The notes under the pieces: generated by a model
Told to the model about the DNA's origin: nothing
Seen by the model: the letters and a program-made list of their open reading frames with translations, nothing else
The model's database searches: none
Source: Promethearchaeota archaeon
Lineage (GTDB): Archaea > Asgardarchaeota > Hermodarchaeia > Hermodarchaeales > Hermodarchaeaceae
Reading direction: 5' to 3'
DNA length: 42,110 nucleotides
NCBI GenBank assembly: GCA_048939245.1
Contig: JBHLPR010000017.1
Span: forward strand, 1 to 42,110
Program-made: the position numbers and the translations under genes
In this document: positions 25,170-40,870 of the stretch, one piece after another
Layout: each line of letters begins with the position of its first letter
How positions within the stretch are numbered: position 1 is the stretch's first letter

Positions 25170-25715
25170 ATGAATAACAAAAAATCTGACTCTAGCCATC
25201 AGGGTCTGGTGCAACTCTATACGGGAAATGGTAAAGGAAAAACCACAGCCGCCTTGGGGTTAGGACTACGTGCTGCCGGACATGGATTTGAAGTATATAT
25301 GATTCAGTTCATGAAAGGGCAGATCAATTATGGGGAATTGGAAGCAGTGAAACATATCCCGAACTTCACCATTCAACAGTTCGGGCGCCCGGATTTTGTT
25401 GATAAAGCCAATCCAGCTCCCGAAGATATCAAACACGCGAAAAATGCGTTAGAGCGGGCTCGTGAACTTATCAAGGTGGGCAGTGTCGATTTTCTTATTC
25501 TCGATGAGGTGAATGTGGCCTTAGACTTTGGGCTGATTAGCGAGAAAGAGGTTATTGCACTCATCAAATCGCGTCCACCAAATATGGAGCTCATCTTAAC
25601 TGGCCGTTATGCACCTCCATCGCTTATTGAAATCGCTGATCTTGTTAGTGAAATTAATGAGGTCAAGCATCCATACCAAAAGGGTGTTGCAGCACGTAAA
25701 GGCGTTGAAATGTAA
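25170..25715 (+). CDS. cobO: Cob(I)alamin adenosyltransferase (CobO/BtuR)
   Basis: YTGNGKGKTTAA, QFMKG, ILDE, LTGR, KHPY..G..ARKG.E. Confidence 0.92.
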   Translation: MNNKKSDSSHQGLVQLYTGNGKGKTTAALGLGLRAAGHGFEVYMIQFMKGQINYGELEAVKHIPNFTIQQFGRPDFVDKANPAPEDIKHAKNALERARELIKVGSVDFLILDEVNVALDFGLISEKEVIALIKSRPPNMELILTGRYAPPSLIEIADLVSEINEVKHPYQKGVAARKGVEM

Positions 25716-25733: not shown

Positions 25734-27407
25734 GTGCCCAAGAAACAGCGTATCAAGAAAGCTTTGCGCCATTGGGAAACCAATGTGCTCAAACCCTATA
25801 CGAAGACTAATCCAGAACAAACTGATGATTTCGTCACCACTTCTAGCAAACCAATAAAACGTCTTTACACACCTGATGACCTTGGCGATTTTGAATATCA
25901 ACGGGCTTTGGGGTTTCCTGGGCAACCGCCCTATACGCGTGGTGTATATCCGACCATGTATCGGGGACGTTTATGGACCATGCGGATGTATTCGGGATTT
26001 GGCAACGCGTTACAAACCAATGCACGTTACCGATACCTCTTGGAACAGGGGCAAACCGGGTTAAGCGTCGCCTTTGATCTTCCAACACAGATTGGCTTTG
26101 ATTCAGACCATCCGATGGCTGCAGGCGAGGTTGGAAAATGTGGGGTGTCCATTCCCACGGTCGAAGATATGGGAATTCTATTCCAAGGAATCCCACTTGA
26201 TAAAGTGAGTACAAGTATGACTATCAATGCACCTGCTGCAGTCTTACTTGCCATGTATCAAGCGATTGCGAAAAGTCAGGGTGTTGATCCCAAGGTGCTG
26301 CGGGGCACGATTCAAAACGATATTCTCAAAGAGTATGTCGCCCGGGGAACCTATATCTATCCTCCAGAGCCGTCCATGCGTTTAATTACAGACACTTTTG
26401 CGTATTGTCGTAAGGAGCTTCCCCGATGGAATACAATCAGCATTAGTGGATATCATATTCGCGAAGCTGGAAGTACTGCTACGCAGGAAGTAGCATTTAC
26501 GTTCGCGAATGGAATCGCATACATAAAAGCTGCCATTGAAGCAGGGTTAAAGATAGACGAGTTTGCTCCGCGTCTCTCATTCTTTTTTGGGGCACAGAAC
26601 GACCTCTTCGAGGAAGTGGCGAAATTCCGAGCGGCACGTCGATTATGGTATAAGATAATGCGCGAACGATTCAATGCAGAAAATCCCCGGTCCTGGTTAC
26701 TTCGTTTTCATACCCAAACAGCTGGGTGTAGTTTAACGGCACAACAACCAGAGAATAATATTGTTCGGGTCACAATGCAAGCCCTTGCGGCGGTGCTCGG
26801 TGGCACTCAATCCTTGCACACCAATTCTATGGATGAAGCCCTCGCACTCCCCACCGAAAAAGCCGCAACAATTGCCTTGCGGACCCAACAAATCCTAGCA
26901 CAAGAAAGTGGTGCGGCGAATACGATAGATCCATTCGCAGGTTCATATTTTCTTGAAACACTTACCGATGAGATTGAAGAAGAAGTCGTGGACTATTTAG
27001 ATCGTATCGACAAAATGGGAGGCGTTCTTCGAGCTATTGAAACCGGATATATTCAACGAGAAATCCATGATAGTGCCTATCGCTACCAACGCGAAATTGA
27101 AACCGGTGAACGCGTTGTCGTGGGTGTCAACCAGTTTGTAATTCCTGAAGAAGAACAAACCATTGAGTATCTGCGCGTTGACCCCTCGATAGAAAAAAGT
27201 CAATCGCAGAAACTGAAGAAACTTCGAAAGAATCGTGATACTAAAAAAGTTGAAAATGCACTGAATCGATTGCATACCACTGCAGAAGGCACGAATAACC
27301 TCTTGTATCCGATACTTTCAGCAGTTGAAGCAAAGGCTACTCTTGGGGAGATATGTGATGTACTCCGGTTAGTCTTTGGAGAATATAAAGCGCCTCAGAT
27401 CTTCTAA
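25734..27407 (+). CDS. Methylmalonyl-CoA mutase, large (substrate-binding) subunit
   Basis: Split-mutase TIM barrel with RMYSGF (Tyr) and KEYVARGT (Arg), matching the MCM specificity residues. Confidence 0.9.
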
Positions 27408-29159: not shown

Positions 29160-29999
29160 GTGAACCCGATGTCTGAGCCTCCCATTCCGCTTGAACCCCG
29201 CAATGACCCTTTTCAGCACGCACTAAGTAATACCTCAAAGCTCGTGTTTAAACGGCTGCTCCATTTTTCCTCACTGCCTTCCACGAATGCATACTTAAAG
29301 TCCCTAGCAGAGGTGGGAGAACCCGAAGGCCTCATTGTATTAGCAGATGAACAAACTGCAGGGAAGGGGCGACTAGACCGAAGCTGGCATTCACCCCAAG
29401 GAGGCTTATATTTCTCCTTACTTGTTCGCCCCATGACCATTGAAGCCAGCAAAACGCCCCTTATCACATTAACTACAGGCATAGCTCTCGCCCAAGTATT
29501 CCAAAGTGCCTTGGGAGTAAAAGCGGTTTTAAAATGGCCTAATGATGTTCTGTTAGATAACCGTAAAGTAGCCGGAATTTTAGTAGAATCCACTTTCATT
29601 GAAACGGATATCGAATTCGCAGTTATCGGTATCGGTATCAATGTGAACTCAACTCGTACGGATTTCCCTGAAACACTCAGTCCTTTCGCGATAACGCTTC
29701 AAGACAAGCTTAATCGCCCTGTAGATACACCCCGTTTGTTCGGATATCTGATAAGTCAACTTGAGTTTTGGTATATGAAACTTCGTGATAAGGGTTTCAA
29801 GGCAATTGAACCACATTATCAGCAATTATGCATCACACTTGGTAAGACAGTCATAATTGATTTGGGTAATACACAGGTCACAGGGCTTGCAAAAGAGCTG
29901 GCATCTGATGGAGGACTAGTCCTTCAAACTTCAGAAGGTCGCCAGATAATCCGCAGTGGTGACGTGGTTTCCTCAATATCAGCCACTGAGAATGAATAA
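29160..29999 (+). CDS. birA: Biotin-protein ligase (no HTH domain)
   Basis: STN, QTAGKGRLDRSW.SP, KWPND, KVAGIL, GIGIN. Confidence 0.92.
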   Translation: MNPMSEPPIPLEPRNDPFQHALSNTSKLVFKRLLHFSSLPSTNAYLKSLAEVGEPEGLIVLADEQTAGKGRLDRSWHSPQGGLYFSLLVRPMTIEASKTPLITLTTGIALAQVFQSALGVKAVLKWPNDVLLDNRKVAGILVESTFIETDIEFAVIGIGINVNSTRTDFPETLSPFAITLQDKLNRPVDTPRLFGYLISQLEFWYMKLRDKGFKAIEPHYQQLCITLGKTVIIDLGNTQVTGLAKELASDGGLVLQTSEGRQIIRSGDVVSSISATENE

Positions 30000-30051: not shown

Positions 30052-30441
30052 ATGTCACAGCTTGGTATCCAGCTTGCATTACTCTTCTTAGCACAGTTCG
30101 ATTTTGTAGATTCACTATTAAATCTGATTTTTGGTGCCTTTGGCTTGATTTTCGTTCTATTCATCGCTATCTTTGTCGGTGTTTTCATTTTCGCTTTCTA
30201 CATGATCTGTAAGAGTATGCGTGCAGCAACCAAAGGCATGGATATCCCTCAAAGTGTTCACTTTGAGCAACACTCCCAAAACGAACGCCAACTCATCAGA
30301 GAAAGCCTCCCTCCTGTCTGCCCTGAATGCGATGCACCTCTGCGATATAATGAGGTAAAATGGACAGGTCCAAGACAGGCTGAGTGTCCCTATTGTGGTC
30401 ACGTCGTTGAATTAGAGGAAACAATCGTGGGAGACGATTAG
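30052..30441 (+). CDS. Membrane-anchored zinc-ribbon protein
   Basis: Hydrophobic N-terminal half followed by CPEC...CPYC. Confidence 0.65.
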   Translation: MSQLGIQLALLFLAQFDFVDSLLNLIFGAFGLIFVLFIAIFVGVFIFAFYMICKSMRAATKGMDIPQSVHFEQHSQNERQLIRESLPPVCPECDAPLRYNEVKWTGPRQAECPYCGHVVELEETIVGDD

Positions 30442-32505: not shown

Positions 32506-32650
32506 GCGTATCTAACCTCGAAGTTATCAACTGGGTTGTAGTTAAGAATCTTTGTGATTTCTGAACGCGGAGATTTTATGTAACCAATTGGGTTTAAGAG
32601 GAGTAGCAGCAGTAGAGGAATCATTCCATGTTAGAAGGAGTGCGATAGAA

Positions 32651-34210
32651 TTGCCTTCAGAAATTATGAATAAGAAAATGAAGGAGCTTCAGAAACACCT
32701 GAAGAAAGCCCAACTTGGTGGTGGAAAAGAGCGCATCGAGAAGCAACATAAGGCTGGGAAAATGACCGCCTGGGAAAGAATCAACCGGTTATTAGATCCT
32801 GGCAGTTTCATGGAGTTTGATGCCCTAGTGGAGCATCGGTGTACTGATTTCAAAATGAACAAACAAAAAATCCCTGGTGATGGGGTGGTGACTGGTTATG
32901 GTACCATTGATGGTCGGCTGGTGTTTGTCTTTAGCCAAGATTTCACAGTGTTTGGTGGGGCTCTGGGGGAAATGTTTGGGGAAAAGGTTACAAAAATCAT
33001 GGATCTTGCCCTCGAAGCAGGAGCTCCAGTGATTGGGTTGAATGATTCAGGAGGAGCGCGCATTCAGGAAGGAGTAGCTAGTTTGGGAGCATATGGTGAG
33101 ATCTTCTATCGCAACGTTATTGCTTCAGGCGTCATTCCTCAAATTAGTGCCATTATGGGTCCCTGCGCTGGTGGAGCAGTCTATAGTCCAGCGGTCACTG
33201 ATTTCACCCTTATGGTGAAAAATACGAGCCGCATGTTTATTACTGGACCTAATGTCATCAAATCAGTTACCGGGGAAGTGATTTCCTTTGAGGAACTAGG
33301 CGGGGCAATGGCTCACAACGTCAAAAGTGGTGTTGCTCAATTCGCTGCTGAAAGTGAAGAACATTGTCTCCAACTCATTCGAAATCTATTGTCATATCTT
33401 CCACCGAACAATATGGAGGACCCGCCGTTTGTAGAACCTACAGATGATTCTCAACGAACTGACCCTGCACTGAACGAGTTGCTTCCTGATGATACAACTA
33501 AACCGTATGATATGAAACAGGCGATTCTGAGTGTAGCAGATAACCATGAGTTTTTGGAAGTTCATGAACTCTTTGCGCAAAACATGGTCGTGGGCTTTAT
33601 CCGCTTGAATGGATATCCGGTTGGCATAGTAGCTAACCAGCCCAACTATTTGGCAGGCACCTTGGATATTAACGCTTCTGACAAATGTGCCCGATTTGTC
33701 CGGTTCTGTGATGCATTTAACATTCCAGTGCTCACATTCATGGACGTGCCCGGATTTCTTCCCGGTGTAGACCAAGAACACCGTGGAATTATTCGCCATG
33801 GTGCGAAAATTCTCTTTGCTTATGCTGAAGCAACCGTTCCCAAAGTTACGGTAATCACGCGAAAAGCCATTGGAGGAGCTTACGTGGTGTTAGGATCTAA
33901 GCATTTACGGGCAGATGTGGTGTATGCCTGGCCCACCACGGAAATGGCGGTTATGGGACCAGAAGGTGCGGCTAATATCATTTTCCGACGCGAAATCGAA
34001 AAATCTAAAGATCCTGAAAAAGCGCGGTCAAAGCGGATTGCCGAATACCGCGAACGATTTGCTAATCCATATTCAGGAGCTGTGCGCGGATTCATTGATG
34101 AGGTCATCGAACCCGCCGTAACTCGATCACGAATCATTGCGGCCTTTGATATGCTCCGTACGAAACGGCAAGCACTTCCCAAAAAGAAACATGGCAACTG
34201 TCCCCTTTAG
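32651..34210 (+). CDS. Acyl-CoA carboxyltransferase (PccB/MmdA/transcarboxylase 12S family)
   Basis: [44 protein letters not shown]; AAGGAG RBS before TTG 32651. Confidence 0.92.
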
Positions 34211-34352
34211 CAGATTCCAGACCTGTCGAATAACCTATCTTCGTTTGACGGCTTCATTGAGAGAATAGAGAGGAGCATGGAAAGACAGAAGACTAAAAAC
34301 TGGGAAGATTATACCACCTAGCTCCCAGTTTGACCTTCATGGTGTGAATATC

Positions 34353-35864
34353 ATGGTATCATCGGTTTCCAAACCCATTAAGTTCACTGATACGACCTTT
34401 CGTGATGCCCATCAATCCTTGCTTGCGACGCGGATGCGTACCGAAGATATGTTGCCTATTGCCAAAAAGATGGACCAAGTAGGTTTTAACTCGATGGAGG
34501 TATGGGGAGGAGCCACCTTCGATGCCCCGCTTAGATTCTTGAAAGAGAACCCCTGGGAGCGACTCCGACAACTCCGAGCCGTAATAAAGAAAACCAAGCT
34601 CCAGATGCTTCTTCGTGGGCAGAATATTGTGGGATATCGCCATTACCCTGATGATACCGTTCGGAAATTTGTTGAACTAGCAGCTGCCAATGGAATCGAT
34701 ATTTTTCGAGTCTTTGATGCCTTGAATGACCCTCGGAACATGCAAACAGCCTTAAAAGCAATCCACAAAGCAGGTGCACATGCGCAGCTGAGTTTTAGTT
34801 ATACAATTAGCCCGGTTCATAGCGTGGAAACCTTCGTAGAGCAGGCTAAGAATTTAGAACAGATGGGCGCAGATTCCATCTGTATTAAGGATATGGCGGG
34901 ACTTTTGAGCCCGTTTATTGCTCGCGAACTTGCCACTCGGTTAAAAGAGGAAATCGCAGTCCCCATTCAATTGCATTCTCATTACACCTCTGGGATGGCC
35001 AGCATGGCCTATCTTGAAGCGATTAAAGCAGGTGTGGACATCGTTGATACTGCGATTTCATCGCTGGCACAGTCCACATCGCAGCCACCATTAGAAACAA
35101 TGGTGGCTGTTTTAGAAGGAACACCCTGGGACTCAAAATTAGACTTGGAATTGCTATCTGAAATTGCCAGTTATATCCATGATGTGCGGGAACGCTACGA
35201 AGCCTACGAATGCGGTATGGTGGGAGTGGATACCAACGTTCTCCAATTTCAGGTTCCAGGTGGAATGATGTCAAATCTTATCAATCAACTTCGAGAACAA
35301 AATGCCTTAGATCGGTTACAGGATGTGCTCGACGAGGTGCCCCGTGTTCGTGAAGAATTAGGCTTCCCACCACTAGTTACGCCCTCAAGCCAAATTGTGG
35401 GAACTCAAGCCACTCTTAATGTTCTACTAGGTGAACGCTACAAAACTATTCCCGAAGAAGTGAAGCAATATGTCCGCGGTTACTATGGCCGCCCACCAGC
35501 ACCGATAGATCCCAAAATTCAAAAACGGGTCATCGGAAATGAAGAACCAATAACCTGTCGCCCCGCAGATTTGCTCGAACCAGCGATCCCTAAGGCCCGA
35601 CAAGAATTGAAAGGAATTTCCTCCGATATAGAAGATATCATCGCATACATCTTATTCCCCCAACCCGCCCTTGAATTCTTTGAATATCGCAAGGAACAGG
35701 CTGCATTGGAGAAACTAACTCCTGATGTCCTTGCAGCCATTACCGCTGCACTACTTGAAACACAACCAGCCCAAGCTTCAATACCCAATTTCCGTCGCCC
35801 CAATACAAGAGGGGCAAACCCCTGGGTTCTTGCAGGTCGTCGAGAAGCCATGGGATATGACTGA
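34353..35864 (+). CDS. Pyruvate/oxaloacetate carboxyltransferase (OadA/PycB/transcarboxylase 5S family) without biotinyl domain
   Basis: RDAHQSL, WGGATFD, LRGQN, CIKDMAG, HSH, PGGM, VTPSSQIVG; no AMKM motif. Confidence 0.9.
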   Translation: MVSSVSKPIKFTDTTFRDAHQSLLATRMRTEDMLPIAKKMDQVGFNSMEVWGGATFDAPLRFLKENPWERLRQLRAVIKKTKLQMLLRGQNIVGYRHYPDDTVRKFVELAAANGIDIFRVFDALNDPRNMQTALKAIHKAGAHAQLSFSYTISPVHSVETFVEQAKNLEQMGADSICIKDMAGLLSPFIARELATRLKEEIAVPIQLHSHYTSGMASMAYLEAIKAGVDIVDTAISSLAQSTSQPPLETMVAVLEGTPWDSKLDLELLSEIASYIHDVRERYEAYECGMVGVDTNVLQFQVPGGMMSNLINQLREQNALDRLQDVLDEVPRVREELGFPPLVTPSSQIVGTQATLNVLLGERYKTIPEEVKQYVRGYYGRPPAPIDPKIQKRVIGNEEPITCRPADLLEPAIPKARQELKGISSDIEDIIAYILFPQPALEFFEYRKEQAALEKLTPDVLAAITAALLETQPAQASIPNFRRPNTRGANPWVLAGRREAMGYD

Positions 35865-35888
35865 ACCGTTACCAAGGAGGCAAAATCA

Positions 35889-36470
35889 CTGACCCGGAAA
35901 TACACACTCACCGTCAACAACGCAACCTTTGAGGTTGAAGTTGATGGACCTAGTAACGGTATCCTTACTATCATAATCGGTGAAGCCACATTTCCAGTAC
36001 GGGTAATAGAGGGGGATTCGAGTTCGGGAAAATACGAGATTACCGTAGGTGACTTGAAACACACTGTCCACCTTAAACCGAATCCAGATACCTCCGATTT
36101 CACGATTAAAATGGAAAAGGAAAGGTTCATTGCGGCTTTGAAAGCTGAAACAGAAAGGCCTGTCCAAAGTTTCCAACCAGCATCAATATCCCCTACTCCA
36201 TCAACAATGTTAGTACCCACTCAAGTTCCAACTAAAGCCGCTCAAGTGCAAGCTGCCCTCGGAACTGTGACAGCTCCATTACCAGGACGTGTCTTGGAAG
36301 TTCGAGTCAAAAGTGGAGCCATAGTCAAACATGGTGACGTTTTACTCGTTCTAGAAGCCATGAAAATGGCAAATGAAATACGTGCACCGCAAGACGGAAC
36401 TGTGACGAAAATTCATGTTGAAGCAGGAACAGCTGTGGAAAAGGGGCAACCAATGATAAGCATCCAATAA
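35889..36470 (+). CDS. Biotin carboxyl carrier protein
   Basis: EAMKM biotinylation site. The frame extends 5' of the track start to CTG 35889 (LTRKYTLTVNNATFEVEV), 8 nt after AGGAGG. Confidence 0.88.
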   Translation: MTRKYTLTVNNATFEVEVDGPSNGILTIIIGEATFPVRVIEGDSSSGKYEITVGDLKHTVHLKPNPDTSDFTIKMEKERFIAALKAETERPVQSFQPASISPTPSTMLVPTQVPTKAAQVQAALGTVTAPLPGRVLEVRVKSGAIVKHGDVLLVLEAMKMANEIRAPQDGTVTKIHVEAGTAVEKGQPMISIQ

Positions 36471-36705: not shown

Positions 36706-36879
36706 TCATCGGGTGGGACTTATTTCCTTTTCAATGAGTGAACTAGCCAGCTTTGTTCTTGTTCAGTTTTGAATCGCTAAGAAGGTCTACTGCCAAAACC
36801 ATTAAAATAAAAGTACCCTAACTGAACAATTATAGGACCATTCACTCCGTTGTATGGCTTCCTCGGATGGCGACGCCCA

Positions 36880-38556
36880 ATGGTAACAAAAGAAAAGGAA
36901 CCCGTTTCACAAATGAAACGTGACTGGGAAAAAACGACGTTAAAGAAGACCCTTGAGCAATCCCCAGAACGAAGAGACCGCTTCATCACTACCTCTAGCC
37001 GTCCCATTGCCCGATTATATACACCAATCGATATTGTGGACCTTGACTATGAAGAGCACCTCGGCTTTCCTGGCCAATATCCCTATACACGTGGCGTCTA
37101 TCCTACGATGTATCGAGGACGATTATGGACAATGCGGATGTTTTCTGGTTTCGGAACTGCAGAACAAACAAACGTCCGATTCCGATACTTATTGGAACAA
37201 GGTCAAACCGGGCTCAGTGTAGCCTTTCACCTACCCACCATCCAAGGACTTGATTCTGATGACCCCATGGCGAACGGGGAAATTGGGGTTTGTGGAGTAG
37301 CCGTCGATTCTCTAGCGGACATGGAGATTTTATTTTCTCAAATACCTCTTGACAAAGTTACCACCTCCATGACCATCAATGCCCCAGCAGCGGTCCTCCT
37401 TTGTCTCTATATTGCAGCAGCCGAAAAGCAGGGAGTACCGTCTACCAAGGTTGGGGGCACCATTCAGAATGATATCTTGAAAGAGTACCAGGCTCAAAAG
37501 ACCTGGATTTTCCCGCCTGATCCGTCCATGCGCATCATAACTGATATCTTACAGTTTTGCACTAAGAAGGTACCCCGGTGGAACACGATAAGCATCAGTG
37601 GTTACCACATCCGGGAAGCTGGGGCTACAGCGGTTCAAGAATTAGCTTTCACTCTTGCCAATGGCTTAGCATATGTGCAAGCTGGTGTTAATGCAGGGTT
37701 GAAAGTTGATGAATTTGCACCACGCCTATCCTTTTTCTTCGATAGCCACCTTGATCTCTTTGAAGAAATTGCGAAATTCCGTGCAGCTCGGCGTATCTGG
37801 GCTCGTGAAATGCAAGAACGCTTCAAGGCGAAGAATCCCCGATCGTATCTATTACGATTCCATACTCAAACAGCCGGAGTGAGCCTCACAGCCCAACAGC
37901 CTGAAAACAACATCATCCGCACCACAATTCAAGCATTAGCAGCGGTTTTAGGTGGAACCCAGTCGTTACACACCAATTCTATGGATGAAGCTTGGGCTCT
38001 ACCAACTGAAAAAGCCGCCACGATTGCGTTGCGAACACAACAGATTCTCGCTCACGAAAGCGGCGTAGCTAATACCATCGACCCCCTAGGGGGATCCTAT
38101 TTCATTGAAGCACTCACCAACGAAATGGAAGAGGAAACCTACAAATATTTTGATCAAATCGAGAAACTTGGGGGAGTTGTGGAATCCATTAAGAAAGGCT
38201 TTTTCCAACGAGAGATAGCAGATTCAGCCTTCCGTTATCAACGTGAAATTGAAGAAAAGGAACGCATCATCGTAGGTGTAAACGATTATATCACCGATGA
38301 TATGCTGGAAATTCCAGTCCTTAGAATCGACCCGGAAGTTGAACGGGTACAACTTAACCGTTTACAAAAGACACGAAAGAGTCGGAATAACCAAAAAGTC
38401 GAACATTTATTGAATCGGTTACGAAAGGCAGCCGAGGGAACAGAGAACCTCCTGCCACATATCTTGGCCGCTGTCCGAGAATACGCAACCATCGGAGAGA
38501 TTTGTAACGCGTTGCGTGATGTGTATGGTGAGTACCAAGAACCAATTATATTCTAA
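36880..38556 (+). CDS. Acyl-CoA mutase large subunit, isobutyryl-CoA-mutase-like
   Basis: Paralogue of 25734..27407 with RMFSGF (Phe) and KEYQAQK (Gln) at the two specificity positions. Confidence 0.85.
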
Positions 38557-39982: not shown

Positions 39983-40870
39983 CTATCTTTTTCGGCCTCG
40001 GGTTGATTCTAGTGGTGTACCCAAGCCAATCGTAGGTTTTCCACCACGTATTTGGTAAGGAACCTTCAGATAGGTGGTAATTTCATCAGGAGCTGTTGTT
40101 TTTAAGATTTGAACGAATTTTGAAGGTTGTTTGAGACCCGGCACATCACCGTATCCCCATCTTAGAACCTGGTCCACCATGCGTTCACAAGCCGTGTGAA
40201 CCTCGGGGACTGTCCCTCGCCACCCCATGAAAAGTATTAGTGTATGCCCAAATTTTCGCATCATATTGATTAAGCGACGAAGATAATTAAGGGCAGGCGT
40301 GGGACCGACGCCATCGATGAAATCATCAACATATGCTAGCATCATTCGAATTGTACCCTTGCCATGAAGGGTGGAGGTGATGTTACTAATTGCCGCAGGT
40401 AGGCCATCAATTGATTGAATTTCATCGGGTTTACGGGGTGACACGAGTAGATTGGGATTCCCGCCCATCTTCTCGATACGATCCTGATAGGAGGTTTTAA
40501 TCAGTTCCCTTTCATGGTCGCCAAAGCCACGATAGGTGAACATATCCACCCAATGAAAGCGATTTATCTTGCTGGTTTCTAAAAAGACATTGAAGGCTTC
40601 GGGTTGTTTTCTTTCACACCACAGTGCAATTGCCACAGGATCAGCATAGGTTGTGACTAAGAGTAGTGTTTCGGAGTCTCGAACACCATTGGTTAACCAA
40701 TCGATGGTGAGACTCACAGGGTCACTAAAGGTCTGATTTTGGACATACATAATGGCCGAGGTGCCCGTCATAATGCCGAAGTATTGATCAAAACTTTTGT
40801 TCCCCGTGTATAAACGCTGACGAGTTTCAATGCCCTCTAAGAGAATACCAGAATCTGCTTTTTCGTTCAT
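39983..40870 (-). CDS. KaiC/RAD55-like RecA-fold protein with degenerate Walker motifs
   Basis: TGNKSFDQYFG start, LLVTT...P, VDMFT and ERMVDQVL...QILK follow the KaiC/RAD55 layout, but there is no GKT. Confidence 0.6.
   Translation of the reverse strand: MNEKADSGILLEGIETRQRLYTGNKSFDQYFGIMTGTSAIMYVQNQTFSDPVSLTIDWLTNGVRDSETLLLVTTYADPVAIALWCERKQPEAFNVFLETSKINRFHWVDMFTYRGFGDHERELIKTSYQDRIEKMGGNPNLLVSPRKPDEIQSIDGLPAAISNITSTLHGKGTIRMMLAYVDDFIDGVGPTPALNYLRRLINMMRKFGHTLILFMGWRGTVPEVHTACERMVDQVLRWGYGDVPGLKQPSKFVQILKTTAPDEITTYLKVPYQIRGGKPTIGLGTPLESTRGRKR

Follow-up and report, generated by a model that had tools for sequence, protein, structure and literature searches.

Three adjacent genes and their products

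The DNA examined here is a 42,110-nucleotide stretch of contig JBHLPR010000017.1 (GenBank assembly GCA_048939245.1) from a Promethearchaeota archaeon of the family Hermodarchaeaceae; the whole stretch is called the window. Our subject is a set of three genes within it that probably encode the parts of a biotin-dependent transcarboxylase, an enzyme that would move a carboxyl group from one acceptor to another without ATP. The source metagenome-assembled genome (MAG) comprises 2.52 Mb in 122 contigs and is 88% complete, and it was compared with 18 other genomes of the same family (72–91% complete; 19 with this genome) and with a set of 41 Asgard genomes. The features at the locus are as follows (aa, amino acids).

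32666..34210, plus strand: 12S-like acyl-CoA carboxyltransferase, 514 aa from ATG 32666
34344..35864, plus strand: 5S-like pyruvate/oxaloacetate carboxyltransferase, 506 aa, with HMGL-like and PYC_OADA domains and no biotinyl domain
35700..35861, plus strand: C-terminal tail of the 5S-like protein, about 50 aa, consisting of an AAIxA helix, a linker and a PW..AGR motif
35889..36470, plus strand: separate biotin carboxyl carrier protein (BCCP), 193 aa, its conserved start position occupied by CTG

The initial annotation had described consecutive 12S-like, 5S-like and separate carrier genes, and domain searches confirm all three, adjacent and on the plus strand. For the 12S-like gene the open reading frame (ORF) extends upstream to a TTG at 32588 (32588..34210); ATG 32666 is the likely start because the alignments of relatives begin at that residue. 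The protein matches PF01039 (Carboxyl_trans) over its full length at 671 bits and is the sole PF01039 match in the genome, while TIGR01117 (mmdA) scores 869 bits, below its cut-off of 999. Among solved relatives, T. maritima 1vrg (730 bits) and ScPccB (690 bits) are followed by the P. shermanii 12S subunit (1on3, 598 bits). Residue 407 (window 33884..33886) is the equivalent of ScPccB D422, a position that influences acyl-CoA selectivity and at which hydrophobic residues broaden the substrate range (PMC7835884). It is Val in the window and in two other Hermodarchaeota 12S-like proteins, Asp in the homologues from Thorarchaeota, Bathyarchaeia, Chloroflexi and Acidobacteria, Leu in P. shermanii 12S and Ile in 1vrg. 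We regard the Val as a lead towards a possibly wider acyl-CoA specificity, one that would not conflict with a 12S role.

The 5S-like protein, the sole PYC_OADA match in the genome, scores 770 bits against the PycB model NF006761 and 558 bits against the model named ‘5S’ (NF008984), below the cut-off of 827. Against solved structures it scores 540 bits with PycB, 526 with OadA and 460 with P. shermanii 5S. The metal-site motifs RDAHQS, KDMAG and HSHxTSG are intact and fall in the same columns as in 1rqb, 2nx9 and 5ks8, the alignment references being P. shermanii 5S, Vibrio OadA and PycB. Its reading frame ends before the carrier, as it does in eight relatives.

The C-terminal tail of this protein is conserved in homologues from Hermodarchaeota, Thorarchaeota, Bathyarchaeia, Chloroflexi and Acidobacteria, and gave no significant match in Pfam, NCBIfam or the PDB; in OadB-linked 5S homologues the tail region spans only about 18 residues. 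A complex prediction for the 12S-like protein with the 5S tail scored 0.03, which is evidence neither way. The Thorarchaeota tails are longer, reaching about 80 aa beyond the core (L006:7285-7575; also L008, L009, L019 and L022), and in the one that was aligned (L006) the W..A[GA]R motif is present twice.

The carrier gene and its start

The carrier matches Biotin_lipoyl at 70 bits, has the EAMKM biotinylation motif and holds the only biotinyl domain in the genome. Its start had been set at TTG 36054 by an ORF finder, giving 138 aa; this proved too short and has been replaced by 35889, a position placed by homology. From 35865 onwards the reading frame is open. The carriers of eight relatives start with GTG or TTG about 25 nucleotides past the 5S stop, preceded by a GGAGG-like site; at exactly that position the window reads CTG. 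The N-terminal domain of the carrier, about 70 aa long, is conserved in relatives (K-Y-x-L-x-[VI]-N ... V-[ED]-V), and a search of solved structures returned no match for it.

The 5S stop codon in the window (TGA, 35862-64) and the carrier ORF share one frame, and read-through of this TGA would yield an OadA-like fused protein. Fusion of the 5S-like protein and carrier by read-through is considered the less likely case. Every relative that was inspected has the carrier as a gene apart, the genes having GTG or TTG starts of their own, and the two reading frames differ or, as in L100, a second stop intervenes; we therefore count two genes rather than a fusion, and the frame shared in the window is treated as a coincidence. 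The CTG may itself initiate, as a rare start codon, or may be a variant of the strain or the assembly; otherwise translation could begin at 36054 or come through from the 5S gene by read-through.

Search for biotin carboxylase and the membrane subunit in the genome and its relatives

Earlier it had been observed that neither a biotin carboxylase nor an OadB/MmdB membrane subunit lies in the window, and this absence extends to the whole genome at its 88% completeness. For biotin carboxylase the best TIGR00514 match in the genome reaches 19 bits, PF02785 has none, and PF02786 finds two weak ATP-grasp matches, one of which is SucC. For OadB/MmdB, PF03977 matches nothing in the genome and gives no score over its cut-off in 40 relatives. 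The same pattern runs through the family, where 16 of the 18 other genomes carry the 5S gene (PYC_OADA) and biotin carboxylase and OadB were found in none. Across the 41 Asgard genomes PYC_OADA is found in 21, biotin carboxylase in 5 and the two together in none; in four Asgard genomes from outside the family that have the 5S gene, two of them single-contig, neither biotin carboxylase nor OadB was found. Control genomes gave the expected matches in these searches, and the incompleteness of the genome is offset by the family-wide absence in relatives. With a single PF01039 protein, a single PYC_OADA protein and a single biotinyl domain in the genome, its whole set of biotin enzymes is this triad.

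The 5S tree and gene order

The nearest homologues of the 5S-like protein come from Hermodarchaeota MAGs (88% and 78% identity), followed at 55–64% identity by those of Thorarchaeota, Bathyarchaeia, Chloroflexi and Acidobacteria. We labelled 87 homologues by their gene neighbours, using tblastn with the 12S, carrier and mutase of the window, Asgard biotin carboxylases and OadB proteins as queries. A quick maximum-likelihood tree was then built (LG+G4, support by the SH-like approximate likelihood ratio test, SH-aLRT, only, midpoint root, all 87 rows kept), with genomic context serving as the label. The window sequence falls in a clade with an SH-aLRT value of 96. Of its 26 rows, 24 combine the order 12S-5S-BCCP or 5S-BCCP with an unfused downstream carrier and a 5S C-terminal tail of 50–85 aa. 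Firmicutes clusters with the order CT-BCCP-OadB-5S (CT, carboxyltransferase) and an 18-aa tail form a separate clade, as do 5S proteins with a fused carrier beside a biotin carboxylase (PycB type). The tree sets the 5S of the window apart from both the OadB-linked and the biotin carboxylase-linked clades, where ‘linked’ denotes gene context.

Three clusters, one from Chloroflexia (L007:2417-7972) and two from Bathyarchaeia (L017:2-8090 and L037:1-8108), have a biotin carboxylase and a second carrier in addition to the 12S-5S-BCCP set. They may be hybrids serving both ATP-dependent carboxylation and transcarboxylation.

Surrounding methylmalonyl-CoA and B12 genes

The mutase, epimerase and BirA genes that had been placed near the triad are borne out by profile matches, which also identify a B12-binding subunit and MeaB. 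The neighbouring features are listed below.

25170..25715, plus strand: corrinoid adenosyltransferase (CobA), TIGR00708, 181 bits
25734..27407, plus strand: second methylmalonyl-CoA mutase large subunit, TIGR00641, 816 bits
28749..29156, plus strand: methylmalonyl-CoA epimerase, TIGR03081, 150.5 bits (cut-off 115)
29160..29999, plus strand: biotin-protein ligase BirA, TIGR00121, 196 bits
36571..36705, plus strand: Cys-rich peptide of 44 aa between the carrier and mutase genes, with five Cys and a CPIC motif at its end
36850..38556, plus strand: methylmalonyl-CoA mutase large subunit, PF01642, 757 bits, and TIGR00641, 810 bits
38587..38988, plus strand: mutase B12-binding subunit, TIGR00640, 185 bits
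39006..39971, plus strand: mutase-associated GTPase MeaB, TIGR00750, 372 bits, over the cut-off

Because the genome has a single biotinyl domain, the carrier is the only client of BirA. The two mutase large subunits (25734..27407 and 36850..38556) are 68% identical, and the window has one B12-binding subunit and one MeaB. Farther upstream lie a 2-oxoacid:ferredoxin oxidoreductase, β-oxidation genes and a CbiMQO cobalt transporter. No part of the window matched an RNA family of Rfam, hence there is no riboswitch before the mutase gene, and a tRNA search of the window found none.

The Cys-rich peptide is recovered by tblastn in five Hermodarchaeota relatives at 61–77% identity, with the upstream part of its 77-aa ORF unconserved; searches of families, solved structures and a protein database (proteins of 24–77 aa) gave no match. 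When the 5S tail, the carrier N-domain and this peptide were used as queries, weak and non-significant matches were to OadG (E 0.11) and ACCA_BT (E 0.09). Two further ORFs lie inside the methylmalonyl-CoA gene island: one of 295 aa at 39983..40870 on the minus strand, with no family match, and one of 129 aa at 30052..30441 on the plus strand, with weak zinc-ribbon matches only.

A predicted ATP-free transcarboxylase

The set of 12S, 5S and 1.3S subunits is that of methylmalonyl-CoA:pyruvate transcarboxylase, which operates in the propionibacterial Wood–Werkman cycle and in syntrophic propionate oxidation. In the present genome we find a 12S-type subunit, a 5S-type subunit with its metal site and a separate carrier, and neither a biotin carboxylase nor a membrane subunit. 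We consider it likely, with good confidence, that the triad makes up a single transcarboxylase of the EC 2.1.3.1 type that depends on biotin and needs no ATP, as predicted from sequence. This reading is well supported because the triad is the sole biotin enzyme set, the partners are absent family-wide and the neighbouring genes belong to methylmalonyl-CoA and B12 metabolism. The ATP-free carboxyl transfer suggested in the initial annotation gains support accordingly from the genome content (biotin carboxylase and OadB in 0/18 relatives, the 5S gene in 16/18), at the level of a prediction. Direct observation covers which genes are present, their active-site motifs, the conservation of gene order and the searches across the family that turned up no ATP-using or Na+-pumping partner; we infer what the substrates are, which way the flux runs and that the subunits assemble into a single complex.

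In the proposed reaction, the 12S-like subunit would free propionyl-CoA by shifting the carboxyl group of (S)-methylmalonyl-CoA to biotin on the 193-aa carrier, and the 5S-like subunit, with a divalent metal presumably held by an Asp, a carbamylated Lys and two His, would pass the carboxyl group from the carrier to pyruvate to give oxaloacetate. The overall transfer is expected to be reversible. BirA would attach biotin to the carrier, and the epimerase, the B12-dependent mutase and MeaB would link methylmalonyl-CoA to succinyl-CoA.

Several observations weigh against this interpretation. The activity of the enzymes in this clade is a prediction. Both carboxyltransferases are nearer to other enzymes than to that of Propionibacterium, the 5S-like protein to PycB and OadA (540 and 526 bits, against 460) and the 12S-like protein to PccB-type subunits (690–730 bits, against 598), and the NCBIfam 5S model is not reached (558 against 827 bits); function is consequently deduced from subunit composition and genome content and not from orthology with the Propionibacterium enzyme. 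A biotin carboxylase adjoins homologous clusters in Bathyarchaeia (L017, L037) and Chloroflexia (L007), and gene order alone is therefore no proof of ATP independence. The absence of partners is drawn from incomplete genomes (88% here, 72–91% in the relatives) and does not amount to proof. The carrier has a CTG at its start position, and a malate dehydrogenase of the lactate/malate dehydrogenase type (LDH/MDH type, Ldh_1_C) is found in 0 of the 19 family genomes.

It has to be considered whether the triad belongs to a conventional carboxylase of pyruvate or of propionyl-CoA, or to a decarboxylase that pumps Na+, with the partner lying in the unassembled 12% of the genome or being non-homologous. 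The best family-model and PDB matches do carry the names PycB, OadA, PccB and MmdA, the genome is incomplete, and the same three genes stand with OadB in Firmicutes and with biotin carboxylase in some Bathyarchaeia and Chloroflexia. However, no such partner turned up in the 19 family genomes or in the four other Asgard genomes carrying the 5S gene, in searches with positive controls, and the window 5S lies outside the clades linked to either partner, so that we judge a conventional enzyme very improbable. To an even higher degree it is improbable that the two carboxyltransferases act apart, as soluble methylmalonyl-CoA and oxaloacetate decarboxylases that conserve no energy and lose carboxybiotin as CO2. 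The physical link between 12S and 5S is a prediction only here, and oxaloacetate may need another sink since no malate dehydrogenase was found. Yet carboxybiotin decarboxylation in known enzymes is the work of the membrane β subunit, and that catalyst is absent here; a single carrier and the tight, conserved 12S-5S-BCCP order fit one coupled enzyme better.

A different proposal concerns the substrate, namely that the transcarboxylase serves mainly in anaerobic alkane degradation, decarboxylating (2-methylalkyl)malonyl-CoA made by a mutase from alkylsuccinyl-CoA. Such a role was already put forward for Hermodarchaeota by Zhang et al. 2021 (PMC8163825), and it would accommodate the two mutase large subunits and the β-oxidation genes in the window, as well as the Val that Hermodarchaeota have where Thorarchaeota, Bathyarchaeia and Chloroflexi have Asp, hydrophobic residues at this position being the ones reported to broaden the range (PMC7835884). 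Against this, the residue is likewise hydrophobic in P. shermanii 12S (Leu) and in T. maritima 1vrg (Ile), and a methylmalonyl-CoA epimerase scoring over its cut-off is encoded nearby. A glycyl-radical enzyme is missing from this genome and present in 8 of the 19 family genomes, and the 5S gene is kept in 9 of the 11 without one, which makes alkane degradation unlikely as the core function; taken as a whole we find this proposal improbable.

A more far-reaching version of the transcarboxylase reading is tentative, and we think it possible but rather doubtful: that the enzymes of Asgard archaea, Chloroflexi and Acidobacteria form a structurally distinct transcarboxylase class with a docking tail on the 5S subunit and a large N-domain on the carrier, accompanied in Hermodarchaeota by the 44-aa peptide. 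On this no less doubtful version, the enzyme would also give the present lineage, one without pyruvate carboxylase, archaeal-type phosphoenolpyruvate carboxylase or canonical malate dehydrogenase, its chief or sole means of passing between pyruvate and oxaloacetate free of ATP. In such a class the Val at the D422 equivalent might signify a wider acyl-CoA range.

Metabolic setting and significance

The predicted transcarboxylase most likely forms a bridge between the pyruvate/oxaloacetate node and the metabolism of propionyl-CoA and succinyl-CoA. Elsewhere the genome has genes for SucCD, malic enzyme, a class I fumarase and an SdhA/TfrA-like flavoprotein, together with at least seven ADP-forming acyl-CoA synthetases. 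The role of the enzyme would be in propionate formation, with ATP gained through the ADP-forming acyl-CoA synthetases, or in the oxidation of propionyl-CoA derived from β-oxidation and amino acid breakdown. Neither GTP-dependent phosphoenolpyruvate carboxykinase nor archaeal phosphoenolpyruvate carboxylase was found in the genome, and PEPCK_ATP matches only weakly (30.7 bits); the transcarboxylase may be the main link between pyruvate and oxaloacetate. Without the Ldh_1_C malate dehydrogenase in any of the 19 family genomes the textbook Wood–Werkman cycle is incomplete. This genome also has no Ldh_2 protein and no propionyl-CoA:succinate CoA-transferase of the AcetylCoA_hyd_C type (PF13336), and a Wood–Werkman-type cycle, as evoked in the initial annotation, is therefore not demonstrated by the gene content.

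Nor is the system undescribed, as had been thought, for the set has already been read in this way (Imachi 2020, PMC7015854; Zhang 2021, PMC8163825). Imachi 2020 took this gene set as an Asgard propionate marker and proposed propionate fermentation as ancestral to Asgard archaea, and Zhang et al. 2021 (Supplementary Table 9) gave the name methylmalonyl-CoA carboxyltransferase to an orthologous Hermodarchaeota gene carried by contig h03m_104_k127_2026471. The contig corresponds to our locus L004, the 12S gene of which is 91% identical to that of the window. The idea being published, our additions are modest, and consist of the family-wide absence of ATP and pump modules, the corrected carrier gene, the gene-order clade and the missing malate dehydrogenase. 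If the prediction is true, all biotin chemistry of this Asgard lineage would run through one ATP-free carboxyl shuttle between the pyruvate/oxaloacetate node and the B12-dependent metabolism of succinyl-CoA and propionyl-CoA. Such a shuttle would matter for organic-acid fermentation and oxidation by energy-limited relatives of eukaryotes, and for the ancestral propionate proposal of Imachi 2020.

Comparison with known systems

Among solved structures, those of the PycA/PycB (5ks8) and PccAB types score best with the 5S-like and the 12S-like protein, and these enzymes differ from the window set in that the latter has no biotin carboxylase subunit and a carrier unfused to the 5S-like protein. 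The Na+-translocating OadABG and MmdABCDE enzymes share homologous α-type carboxyltransferases and a carrier, and the Firmicutes CT-BCCP-OadB-5S clusters hold the same three proteins; however, the PF03977 β subunit is absent from this genome and 40 relatives, and the window 5S lies outside the OadB-linked clade.

The mmc clusters of syntrophs that oxidise propionate, Pelotomaculum for example (mmcH, I, J, L; PMC8892533), likewise place a 12S-like ‘MMD alpha’, a carrier ‘MMD gamma’ and a 5S beside mutase and epimerase. Clusters of this type have further pathway genes, among them those for malate dehydrogenase and succinyl-CoA synthetase, and encode a small ‘epsilon’ subunit on its own, whereas the window has no separate epsilon gene and instead a tail fused to the 5S, and malate dehydrogenase was not found.

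The transcarboxylase of P. freudenreichii subsp. shermanii (EC 2.1.3.1; 1on3, 1rqb, 1dcz) is not the closest relative by sequence (460 bits for its 5S, where PycB reaches 540, and 598 for its 12S, where 1vrg reaches 730). The window set also departs from it in the conserved tail of about 50 aa on the 5S, in the 193-aa carrier with an N-domain of about 70 aa, and in an archaeal host in which no malate dehydrogenase was found to close the Wood–Werkman cycle. Nevertheless, the two consist of the same three parts without an ATP-grasp module, and they are alike in the crotonase-fold 12S, in the TIM-barrel 5S with the same metal motifs and in the small EAMKM carrier.

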